Below are positions 57,871 to 63,910 of a DNA stretch of 64,000 nt, one piece after another. Every line of letters starts with the position of its first letter. Within the stretch, counting starts at the first letter, position 1. Source of the DNA: an uncultured Pseudomonadota bacterium (GTDB lineage: Bacteria > Myxococcota_A > UBA796 > SXON01); assembly GCA_903959175.1 (NCBI GenBank), contig CAJBVW010000449.1:12959-76958 (forward strand). Direction: 5' to 3'. The position numbers and the translations under genes are program-made. The notes beneath the pieces were generated by a model. That model was not told where the DNA came from, searched no databases, and saw only the letters and a program-made list of their open reading frames with translations.

Positions 57871-61006
<3,136 letters not shown>

Positions 61007-61097
61007 TCTCCCCTCCCCCCGCGCCCGCACTCCCCCGCGGGCCCCCTGAACGTCGCCCTCCCCAGGTGACGCCCCTCCCCACCCCGATCCCCCCCAC

Positions 61098-62249
61098 ATG
61101 CCGCTCGATCTCGGCTCGCTCCGGAGCCAATCCATCGCCGAGCTGATCCAGACGGCGCGCACCTGCAACATCGAGAACGCGTCGAGCCTCAAGAAGCAGG
61201 ACCTCGTCGCGGCCATCCTCCGTGAGACGGGAGGCGTCACCTCAGACGGCTCCGGCGTCCTCGAGATCCTCCCGGACGGCTTCGGTTTCCTGCGCGCGCC
61301 CGAGTACAGCTTCCACCCCGGCTCGGACGACGTCTACGTCTCCCCGTCGCAGATCCGCCGCTTCAACCTCCGCACCGGCGATCTCGTCGGCGGCCAGGTC
61401 CGCGCGCCCAAAGAGAACGAGCGCTACTTCGCGCTCATCAAGGTGGAGCGCGTCAACGGCGATCCCCCCGAGTCCGCCCGGGAGAAGGTCCTCTTCGAGA
61501 ACCTCACCGCCGTGTGGCCCCGCCGCCGCCTCCTCCTGGCGGACCCCTCCCTGCGCATGCTCTCGGCCTGCGCGCCCGTCGGCTTCGGCCAGCGCGCGCT
61601 CGTCGTGGGCTCGCCGCGCTCGGGCCGCTCCACGCTGCTGACCCGCCTCGCGCGGGACATCGCCGCGACCCACCCCGACGTCGCCCTGTTCGTCGTGCTC
61701 GTCGCCGAGCGCCCCGAAGAGGTGACCGAGGCCGAGCGCACGGTGCCCGGCGTCGTGCTCGCCAGCACCTTCGACGAGCCCGACACCCGCCACATGCAGG
61801 TCGCCGAGATGGCGATCGAGCGCGCGAAGCGCCTCGTCGAGCACCGTCGGGACGTCGTCGTGCTCTTCGACTCGCTCGACCGCTACGCCCTCGCCACCGG
61901 CGCGCCCCCCGACGGGCTCGACGCCACCGCCCTGCTGCGCGTGCGCCGCGTGTTCGGCGCCGCCCGCGAGTGCGAGGAGGGCGGCTCCTGCACCCTCTTC
62001 GCCACGGCCGACACCGGGGGCGCCGTCGCCGCCGCCCTGCGGGACGCCGCCACCTGCGAGATCCGCCTCGACGGCGAGCTCGCCCGCCGCGGCGTCTGGC
62101 CCGCCCTCGCCCTCGAGGAGACCGGCACCCTCCGCGCCGAGCGCCTCCAGACCCCGGACGACGCTGCCCTCACCGAACGCCTCCGCCGCGCCGGCTCTGC
62201 GGATGCTGCGCGCGCGTTGCTTGACAAGGCGGCGGCGGCGGGTGAATAA
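61098..62249 (+). CDS. rho: Rho-like transcription termination factor homolog with a degenerate ATPase domain
   Basis: N-terminal LEILPDGFGFLR...VYVSPSQIRRFNLRTGD...ERYFALIKV closely matches Rho. The motor domain has GSPRSGRS in place of PPKAGKT and shortened or altered Q/R-loop regions. 383 aa. It sits upstream of rpmE-prfA-prmC. Confidence 0.8.
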   Translation: MPLDLGSLRSQSIAELIQTARTCNIENASSLKKQDLVAAILRETGGVTSDGSGVLEILPDGFGFLRAPEYSFHPGSDDVYVSPSQIRRFNLRTGDLVGGQVRAPKENERYFALIKVERVNGDPPESAREKVLFENLTAVWPRRRLLLADPSLRMLSACAPVGFGQRALVVGSPRSGRSTLLTRLARDIAATHPDVALFVVLVAERPEEVTEAERTVPGVVLASTFDEPDTRHMQVAEMAIERAKRLVEHRRDVVVLFDSLDRYALATGAPPDGLDATALLRVRRVFGAARECEEGGSCTLFATADTGGAVAAALRDAATCEIRLDGELARRGVWPALALEETGTLRAERLQTPDDAALTERLRRAGSADAARALLDKAAAAGE

Positions 62250-62559: not shown

Positions 62560-62815
62560 CGTCGCGGGTCCGCGCCGGGTGGCTGCGGGCTGCGTGTACG
62601 CAACCCTGTCGGGGCCCGGCACTTCGACCTCCCGTCGCCCAACGGCTGATGAGCCGGGCACGGGCGGTCGACCGGTCGTACCCCGTCCTGTAGGTGCGCC
62701 CGGAGTCCTCTCCCGGCCGCCCCGTCCTGCCTGCGGGTGGCCCTGATCGCCCCTGCACGCGCGGCCCCTCCGTTCCTCCGGGAGCGAGCCTTCCGCGCAC
62801 ACCCGAAGGCCCGCC

Positions 62816-63906
<1,091 letters not shown>

Positions 63907-63910
<4 letters not shown>

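Follow-up and report, generated by a model that had tools for sequence, protein, structure and literature searches.

The gene analysed here is the rho gene of a 64,000-nucleotide stretch of contig CAJBVW010000449.1 (hereafter the window), which belongs to a metagenome-assembled genome (MAG) of 611 contigs, 7.2 Mb and 95% completeness. By descent the encoded protein is an ortholog of the transcription termination factor Rho, and by sequence it fails defining functional features of that family: its primary RNA-binding site is intact, and the catalytic lysine of its Walker A motif as well as the Q- and R-loops of its motor domain are altered. Judging from what is known of these motifs, ATP hydrolysis and translocation would be lost, and we consider it fairly probable that the gene specifies a translocation-dead, RNA-binding Rho oligomer. 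Such a protein would be a pseudo-ATPase-type descendant of Rho, in which the fold has been kept under purifying selection while catalytic and coupling residues have disappeared.

Few bacterial motors are regarded as more strongly conserved than Rho, yet in this genome the sole rho is altered and still selected. The new elements are the breadth of the phenomenon (about 135 genomes of one bacterial order), a graded series running from canonical to heavily decayed proteins, and evidence of selection; a motor-degenerate Rho kept by selection throughout a clade was not found described in the literature.

Domains and motifs of the window Rho

Residue numbers such as K184 follow E. coli Rho, and alignments were produced with phmmer against Protein Data Bank (PDB) sequences and with MAFFT. 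The window Rho aligns with E. coli Rho over its full length (phmmer E = 1e-101, 46% identity) and is 36 residues shorter. Three Pfam domains are recognised, namely the N-terminal helix bundle Rho_N (PF07498, 42.6 bits, cut-off 24.9), Rho_RNA_bind (PF07497, 115.5 bits, cut-off 27) and the generic ATPase domain ATP-synt_ab (PF00006, 50.6 bits, cut-off 29.5). Among NCBIfam models, the protein scores above the cut-off of NF006886 (374.2 bits, cut-off 315) and below that of the equivalog TIGR00767 (377.9 bits, cut-off 509.45). The original prediction, made by eye from the sequence, had described a Rho homolog at a rho-rpmE-prfA-prmC locus, a description borne out by the list of open reading frames (ORFs), by Pfam, and by the presence of prmC (identified by its SNPPY motif) after prfA on the same contig, just past the window end.

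The RNA-binding half of the protein has changed little. All of the N-terminal RNA-binding motifs quoted in the prediction are present; the primary-site residues F62, F64, R66, D78, Y80, E108, R109 and Y110 are all intact and are invariant in both alignments (A1 and A2), and of the 35 N-terminal positions at which canonical Rhos never vary, the protein retains 33.

For ATP hydrolysis and translocation, E. coli Rho needs its Walker A lysine, the Q- and R-loops that make up the secondary RNA site, and the R366 arginine finger. In the window protein the P-loop PPKAGKT is replaced by SPRSGRS (residues 172-178), with R177 equivalent to K184R and S178 to T185S, such that the Walker A consensus GxxxxGK[ST] is broken by an arginine (CGC codon) at the place of catalytic Lys184. 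This lysine is invariant in 19 outgroup Rhos as well as in the canonical Rhos inside the order. K184R is the only P-loop change that matters, K181R being without weight because arginine is the commonest residue at 181 among canonical Rhos. The derived P-loop is itself conserved, the pattern PR[ST]GR[ST] being kept in all seven species of the genus and in metagenomic relatives. Both phmmer and MAFFT reproduce the by-eye alignment on which the lysine-to-arginine change had been proposed, and the worry that this alignment was shifted has been dispelled, as the proper alignments still lack Lys184 and the full loops.

The canonical Q-loop spans residues 278-290, K283 and T286 among them; the R-loop spans residues 322-326 and includes K326. 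The Q-loop, read by eye as shortened to GAPPDGLD, does have eight residues fewer in the alignments; in addition, its length differs through indels among species of the window's genus, which argues that the loop is unconstrained. The R-loop, also predicted to be altered, has lost six residues, and the K326 position is no longer basic, its exact register being ambiguous in the alignment. Losses that the prediction had not named are R353G, G337D, D210A and the segment following the R-loop. The predicted loss of the arginine finger is less certain: SGTRKE has become TGTLRA, with leucine aligned to R366 in an ambiguous register, but an arginine follows directly, and since otherwise canonical Rhos of the in-order genus g17 (G031 and G059) also read TLR, a one-residue shift at R366 is possible. 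Retention of AERPEEV and VVVLFDS was confirmed by alignment, where IDERPEEV of E. coli Rho faces VAERPEEV and ILLDS faces VLFDS. Because the motor motifs are invariant across the 19 outgroup Rhos, which represent more than seven phyla, the deviations of the window protein lie far beyond chance variation. The Rho elements needed for ATP hydrolysis and translocation are listed in a 2024 Rho survey (PMC11347177).

The motor domain is predicted still to fold as Rho. AlphaFold2 models were obtained from a mixed alignment (predicted local distance difference test, pLDDT, 92.1; predicted template modelling score, pTM, 0.89) and from degenerate-clade sequences only (pLDDT 93.8, pTM 0.90), values that describe monomers and a program whose training data include Rho structures. 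By Foldseek, both models match E. coli Rho protomers (8q3p, 5jji, 3ice) with a TM-score of 0.92 and a root-mean-square deviation of 2.5 Å. The remnants of the Q- and R-loops are modelled as short ordered turns (Q-loop pLDDT ~87-94).

Distribution, history and selection of the altered motor

Searches of the genome with PF07497 and TIGR00767 returned one Rho_RNA_bind match and one Rho-type motor, and two weak ATPase matches at other sites proved to be FliI/YscN and F1 beta. Exactly one Rho is found in each of 41 sampled relatives (41/41), and those genomes that contributed two Rho rows to a broader survey of 154 genomes carry one gene split at contig ends. The order ligA-rho-rpmE-prfA-prmC is common to the window's contig and the long-read genome G083 (family f4), in which the same upstream neighbor carries ligase Pfam domains. 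On this synteny and the gene tree described below, the window rho is a vertically inherited, syntenic ortholog and the sole rho of its genome. Assignment to the short-form Rho paralog NF041509 was considered and rejected, in that the window protein scores 257.1 bits against a cut-off of 628, possesses the N-terminal domain and is the only Rho present.

The survey of the order covered 154 genomes from 7 families and 68 genera, from which 83 Rho proteins were extracted. A Rho match was found in 146 of the 154, and just 11 of the 154 reach the TIGR00767 cut-off, all of them belonging to four genera of family f2; the Rhos of the remaining members score 120-497 bits against the same model. By this measure motor decay affects about 135 of the 146 Rho-bearing genomes. 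Among the sister orders that make up the remainder of the class (26 genomes from 5 families), every complete Rho scores 660-735 bits, and within the class motor decay is, by these scores, confined to the window's order. The lineage-wide distribution raised as a possibility in the original prediction has thus been found, with sister orders canonical.

The order contains every intermediate between a canonical and an almost unrecognizable Rho. The canonical f2 genera read RxGKT, DER, PSSGKxLSGGVD, TGSRMDE and SGTRR at the successive motor motifs. Degenerate P-loops vary (RSGRS, RTGRV[E/D], RAGVA, RTERF, GSEGL, REHPSQ); position 184 is arginine in 45 of 72 degenerate-clade sequences and otherwise V, A, C, E or H, and E211 has been lost in ~30% of the clade. 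K283R and K298R are near-universal there, and the Q- and R-loops are shortened to varying extents, the largest loop deletions being those of the window's genus. Members of families f5 and f6 are mildly altered (420-497 bits) and differ from canonical Rho mainly by K184R and K283R; family f7 is the most decayed (120-200 bits). T185V is found in all of family f4, whose P-loop R-T-G-R-V-[E/D] recurs in more than 100 metagenomic sequence clusters, a few with lysine in place of arginine. Judged by its sequence, this P-loop, in which the Mg2+ ligand threonine has given way to Val185 next to an acidic residue, resembles a new state favored by selection, in which the pocket is perhaps self-plugged. 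Throughout the 41 relatives, the N-terminal domain scores 110-120 bits and is as conserved as in canonical Rho.

The phylum of the order is probably Myxococcota, on the basis of the NCBI labels Myxococcota/Myxococcales borne by several member MAGs; other member MAGs are labelled Alphaproteobacteria/Pseudomonadota, labels that look wrong. Across the phylum most families are canonical, but rho has disappeared altogether on several occasions and is absent from several families, even in genomes that are 97-100% complete. Searches found no Rho RNA-binding domain in G187, G192, G197, G202, G205, G207, G212, G215, G217, G221, G225, G229, G231, G233, G237, G241, G245, G251 and G253, nor in G092 and G041, two well-assembled genomes of the window's own order. 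Outside the order, convergent decay was observed in G249 (L172, G249:C216), which combines K184R with an 11-residue Q-loop deletion, and in G297 (L173, G297:C77), in which catalytic Glu211 is replaced by valine. The rho of G146 (G146:C395:468-1544, minus strand) contains an in-frame TAG and is either a pseudogene or the product of a sequencing error. Many members of families f16, f17, f20 and f28 have a second short Rho beside a canonical full-length one (e.g., G189:C1:4364493-4365335); these second proteins match model positions ~128-413 only, with 360-436 bits, and their sequences fit the known short-form paralog.

The history of the protein was traced in a tree of 98 Rho proteins (IQ-TREE, LG+C20, quick search). 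The order forms one clade (100*) with the canonical f2 genera as a basal grade, and the degenerate Rhos make up a single nested clade (SH-aLRT 93) that implies a minimum of one state change, a topology to be read with the caveat that fast-evolving sequences may attract each other (long-branch attraction). The tree also recovers each of families f1, f3 and f4, as vertical descent would predict. Since the taxonomic family f2 includes both states, the true transitions would number two or three if the taxonomy is right.

Selection was assessed with Nei-Gojobori estimates of omega, the N-terminal part being defined as residues 1-139. Within the window's genus, the N-terminal part has an omega of 0.03-0.2 and the motor one of 0.13-0.49; motor values are 0.05-0.28 in other degenerate genera, except for one divergent g9 pair at 0.54, and ~0.11-0.12 in three canonical control genera of the same order. 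The ratio of motor to N-terminal nonsynonymous divergence (dN) is 1.3-5 in degenerate genera and 0.4-0.5 in two of the three canonical pairs, the third, which includes the truncated G037 gene, giving 3.65. Similarly, of the canonical-invariant positions the degenerate clade retains 91% in the N-terminal part, compared with 58% in the motor. Both domains are thus under purifying selection, with an order of constraint opposite to that of canonical Rho. Even so, some motor positions are near-fixed: G171, R173, P213, R252, E255 and G311 are retained at 100%, and others at 93-97% (R212 94%, D265 93%, S266 96%, as well as R238, H239 and R305). Taken together, the omega estimates, the retained motor positions and the conserved derived motifs argue that the motor domain is maintained for something other than canonical chemistry. 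The predicted normality of the gene also holds, in that the frame is intact and the G+C content at third codon positions (GC3, 0.93-0.96) equals that of neighboring genes, indicating normal codon usage; a pseudogene reading was rejected in view of omega, frame integrity and the conserved derived motifs.

The rho locus and its C-rich leader

The features of the locus are collected in Table 1. The 103-aa ORF that directly precedes rho gave zero matches to Pfam. Between positions 60500 and 64000 neither a sigma-70-type promoter nor an intrinsic terminator was found. The L31 protein encoded by rpmE is without cysteine and is of the zinc-independent type. NusG is present and canonical.

Table 1. 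Coordinates of the rho gene, its encoded elements and its neighbors within the window
Feature	Position	Strand	Remarks
ligA, NAD-dependent DNA ligase	58533..60581	-	ORF; upstream neighbor of rho, conserved in order
103-aa ORF directly 5' of rho	60695..61006	+	Conserved across 7/7 genus species
rho leader, 91 nt	61007..61097	+	From upstream stop codon to ATG
rho coding sequence	61098..62249	+	383 aa plus stop, ATG start
N-terminal helix bundle, residues 1-47	61098..61238	+	Rho_N residues 8-42; AlphaFold2 helices 5-9, 13-22, 33-44
OB-fold primary RNA-binding domain, residues 52-125	61251..61472	+	Rho_RNA_bind
Degenerate Walker A GSPRSGRS, residues 171-178	61608..61631	+	From alignment
AERPEEV	61704..61724	+	Catalytic Glu211 and Arg-valve Arg212 kept; Asp210 to Ala
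Walker B strand VVVLFDS, then LDRY	61854..61874	+	Asp265, Ser266 and Arg269 kept
Q-loop remnant GAPPDGLD, residues 268-275	61899..61922	+	8 residues shorter; Lys283 and Thr286 gone
R-loop remnant ATADTGGAVAA	62001..62033	+	6 residues shorter; no Lys/Arg at K326 position
C-terminal nucleotide pocket/Arg-finger region	62085..62141	+	RRGVWPAL (R353 to G, F355 to W), EETGTLRAE
rpmE, ribosomal protein L31	62299..62559	+	Pfam Ribosomal_L31, 86.4 bits
prfA, release factor 1	62816..63910	+	Pfam PCRF and RF-1

The E. coli rho gene is autoregulated through the action of Rho on its own leader, and the leader of the window rho is exceptional in composition. It consists of 64% C (58 C and 15 G, a C>G skew of 0.59), contains no Shine-Dalgarno sequence over its 91 nt, and ends in a C-run that abuts the ATG. 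Ranked among 12,782 stretches of 91 nt on both strands of the 64-kb window, it comes first for both C content and C>G skew. The 476 genes of the genome with well-defined starts have leaders that average 36% C, and only 1 of the 476 reaches 60%. Within the leader, a hairpin GCCCGC-ACTCCCCC-GCGGGC (61023-61042, plus strand) is conserved within the genus.

Of the 72 degenerate-clade loci, 44 have a C-tract 5' of rho that ranks within the top 1% of the locus, and such a tract also occurs in 2 of the 4 canonical genomes from the order and 2 of the 13 outgroups; what is conserved is its composition rather than its sequence. By sequence, then, the leader is a candidate ligand of the primary RNA-binding site of Rho itself, and the pattern is suggestive of a leader that bound Rho for autoregulation in the ancestor and has remained selected after motor decay. 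If this were so, binding of C-rich RNA by the protein would persist in vivo and would have regulatory consequences.

A second C-rich tract was observed downstream, where the 256-nt spacer before prfA (62560-62815, plus strand) includes a stretch of ~50% C at 62697-62815 that ranks in the top 5% of the genome's leaders. Among the five leaders checked (rho, rpmE, prfA, ligA and the 103-aa ORF), that of prfA is the only other C-rich one.

Alternative explanations and relation to known systems

In the interpretation that we favor, a Rho-like oligomer would still be assembled through the RecA-type domain, and its OB-fold clefts would bind pyrimidine-rich (YC) single-stranded RNA. This RNA would not be threaded through the central channel, and any ATP hydrolysis would be uncoupled from 5'->3' translocation, such that termination through classical tracking would not be expected; in the absence of a coupled motor, the selected function would be ATP-independent RNA binding. 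Candidate roles include the occupancy or sequestration of C-rich untranslated RNA and, probably, binding of the protein's own Shine-Dalgarno-less, C-rich leader, by which autoregulation could be achieved through occlusion of the initiation region. Contact with RNA polymerase/NusG complexes is possible, and the conserved Arg-type P-loop may still be occupied by a nucleotide or by phosphate, with a structural or a regulatory role. Support for a maintained function other than ATP hydrolysis can be found in those lineages that keep rho even though the P-loop has moved past any nucleotide-binding consensus (RAGVA, RTERF, GSEGL, REHPSQ), T185 has become valine or E211 has been lost.

Several observations weigh against this interpretation. 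The window protein keeps E211, R212, D265, S266, R269, a hydroxyl at 185 and a conserved Arg184, so nucleotide binding, and perhaps slow hydrolysis, are possible. The motor omega of the window's genus (to 0.49) is the most relaxed measured, bar the g9 pair (0.54). C-rich 60-nt stretches are common inside genes of this genome, although the rho leader remains exceptional beside the 476 gene leaders, and it could be that the leader serves another factor. A test of coding-strand C-avoidance as a mark of lost Rho function, prompted by PMC13323073, compared genomes of the order (3 with canonical Rho, 6 with degenerate Rho) and 6 outgroups for C-G skew and purine excess and did not separate them, all values lying within about -0.05 to +0.05, the test being a weak one that relied on crude gene calls by GC3 pattern over 40-80 kb per genome. 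Lastly, K184R is present in five Actinomycetes Rhos that are counted as functional in the 2024 survey (PMC11347177).

One alternative is a still-working terminator, the original suggestion of a Rho that works with a non-canonical P-loop, in which an arginine P-loop would hydrolyse ATP and the shortened loops would translocate on, or pull, RNA. Besides the retained pocket residues, with serine at 185, and the Actinomycetes precedent (PMC11347177), such activity would accord with purifying selection on the motor domain, with the canonical NusG, with the conservation of R184 across the genus and most families in place of drift, and with the f5 and f6 members, which depart from canonical Rho mainly at K184 and K283. 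For the window protein it is nevertheless unlikely. The Q-loop is eight residues shorter and indel-variable in the genus, the R-loop is six residues shorter without a basic residue, R366L (in an ambiguous register), R353G and G337D accompany them, the P-loops of close relatives would be unable to bind Mg-ATP (RAGVA; T185V in f4), and rho is dispensable in parts of the phylum. Lysine-to-arginine changes in the Walker A motif of P-loop NTPases, moreover, usually cut hydrolysis by orders of magnitude, as in RecA K72R. Equally improbable to our minds is a nucleotide-binding, non-hydrolysing switch, whose Arg184 pocket would bind ATP, ADP or (p)ppGpp, control ring assembly, hyper-oligomerization or RNA binding, and so sense metabolic state. 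In its favor, pocket residues are selectively kept in the degenerate clade (G183 74% and Arg184 45/72, in addition to R212, D265 and S266 at the levels given above), and the new P-loops show strong conservation (within the genus PRSGR[ST], and RTGRV[E/D] in >100 f4 clusters). The equivalent pocket of E. coli Rho (G183, K184, T185, R366, K367) binds ADP and (p)ppGpp, which drives hyper-oligomerization (PMC11829017). A switch of this kind is hard to reconcile with T185V, which eliminates the Mg2+ ligand in f4, with the loss of R353 and of the Arg finger (register ambiguous) in the window protein, and with the several lineages that keep the gene without any P-loop consensus.

That the gene is a functionless relic, slowly decaying after Rho function was lost in an ancestor and not yet deleted, would accord with the loss of rho from several families of the phylum and from G092 and G041, with the in-frame TAG of G146, with a motor omega of up to 0.49 in the window's genus and with f7 copies of just 120-200 bits. 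This is very improbable, however, given an intact reading frame in 146 of 154 genomes (67 genera), omega well under 1 in both domains, an N-terminal domain as conserved as in canonical Rho, conserved derived motifs, normal GC3 and a confident fold prediction from the clade's own alignment. As for a regulatory paralog with a canonical rho elsewhere in the genome, the original prediction had paired this with a translocation-dead, RNA-binding protein, and only the latter part survives, as the best supported reading. A 611-contig MAG of 95% completeness could miss a gene, but profile searches found no second Rho_RNA_bind domain or Rho-type motor in the genome and none in the 41 relatives, the gene occupies the ancestral rho locus, and single copy, synteny and tree together refute the paralog, which we regard as scarcely credible.

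A bolder extension of the translocation-dead, RNA-binding Rho, which we hold to be possible though rather doubtful, is that the order has remodelled an essential-type terminator helicase as an RNA-binding ring that has no motor but continues to influence gene expression. RNA polymerase might be switched off or paused without translocation, or C-rich leaders, including that of rho, might be repressed at the level of translation or RNA stability; in that case the Arg-type P-loops (PRSGR[ST], RTGRV[E/D]) would not be products of decay but pockets that sense a ligand or are self-plugged. A motor-less ring acting on polymerase would, if true, be a natural separation-of-function form relevant to the disputed translocation-independent (allosteric) model, and more generally, should these proteins still influence transcription, they would bear on the choice between tethered-tracking and allosteric models of termination. 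With its intermediate stages, the order offers a natural series from which it may be learned what Rho can do in the absence of translocation and by which succession of steps the motor of a ring helicase is lost. On the practical side, all such proteins are called 'transcription termination factor Rho' by annotation pipelines, a name that probably claims too much for them, and bicyclomycin-type inhibitors would be expected to be inactive on motor-degenerate Rhos.

The closest known system is canonical Rho itself (E. coli; TIGR00767/NF006886; PDB 1PV4, 3ICE, 5JJI, 8Q3P), with which the window protein shares the three-domain architecture, the primary-site residues and the rho-rpmE-prfA type of locus. 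Of the motor residues, E211, R212, D265 and R269 are shared, while Lys184, the Q- and R-loops, R353 and G337 are altered, and the degenerate motor, in contrast to that of canonical Rho, evolves faster than the RNA-binding half. Precedents for a RecA-type fold that is kept as a scaffold for assembly or ligands while hydrolysis is lost or strongly reduced are provided by the F1 alpha and V1 B subunits and by the RecA K72R and Rad51 K133R mutants, and Walker A lysine-to-arginine mutants typically still bind nucleotide. Those subunits and mutants work beside catalytic partners or are engineered, whereas the window Rho is a putative homo-oligomer in which all sites are altered, naturally and order-wide.

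Among published work, the 2024 survey describes the ATPase domain as 'highly conserved among functional Rho' and counts exceptions as absence (PMC11347177). It names Haliangium ochraceum (Myxococcota) as the one myxobacterium 'lacking functional Rho' and reports 'Rho-like' proteins, which have an N-terminal domain plus an RNA-binding one, in Baekduia soli and Conexibacter woesei of the Actinomycetota (PMC11347177). H. ochraceum belongs to the phylum deduced for the window, and the text of the survey contains no motif, selection or distribution analysis (PMC11347177); no cultured species was found among 120 relatives of the f4 Rho, and H. ochraceum is at most a possible member of the clade. The short-form Rho paralog NF041509 (paralog_Rho2) is likewise a Rho-derived, non-standard form. 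It differs from the window protein in what has been discarded and what has been retained: according to the survey, the short form is devoid of the N-terminal domain, retains the catalytic residues and occurs beside a full Rho (PMC11347177), whereas the window protein has kept its N-terminal domain and is the sole Rho of its genome.

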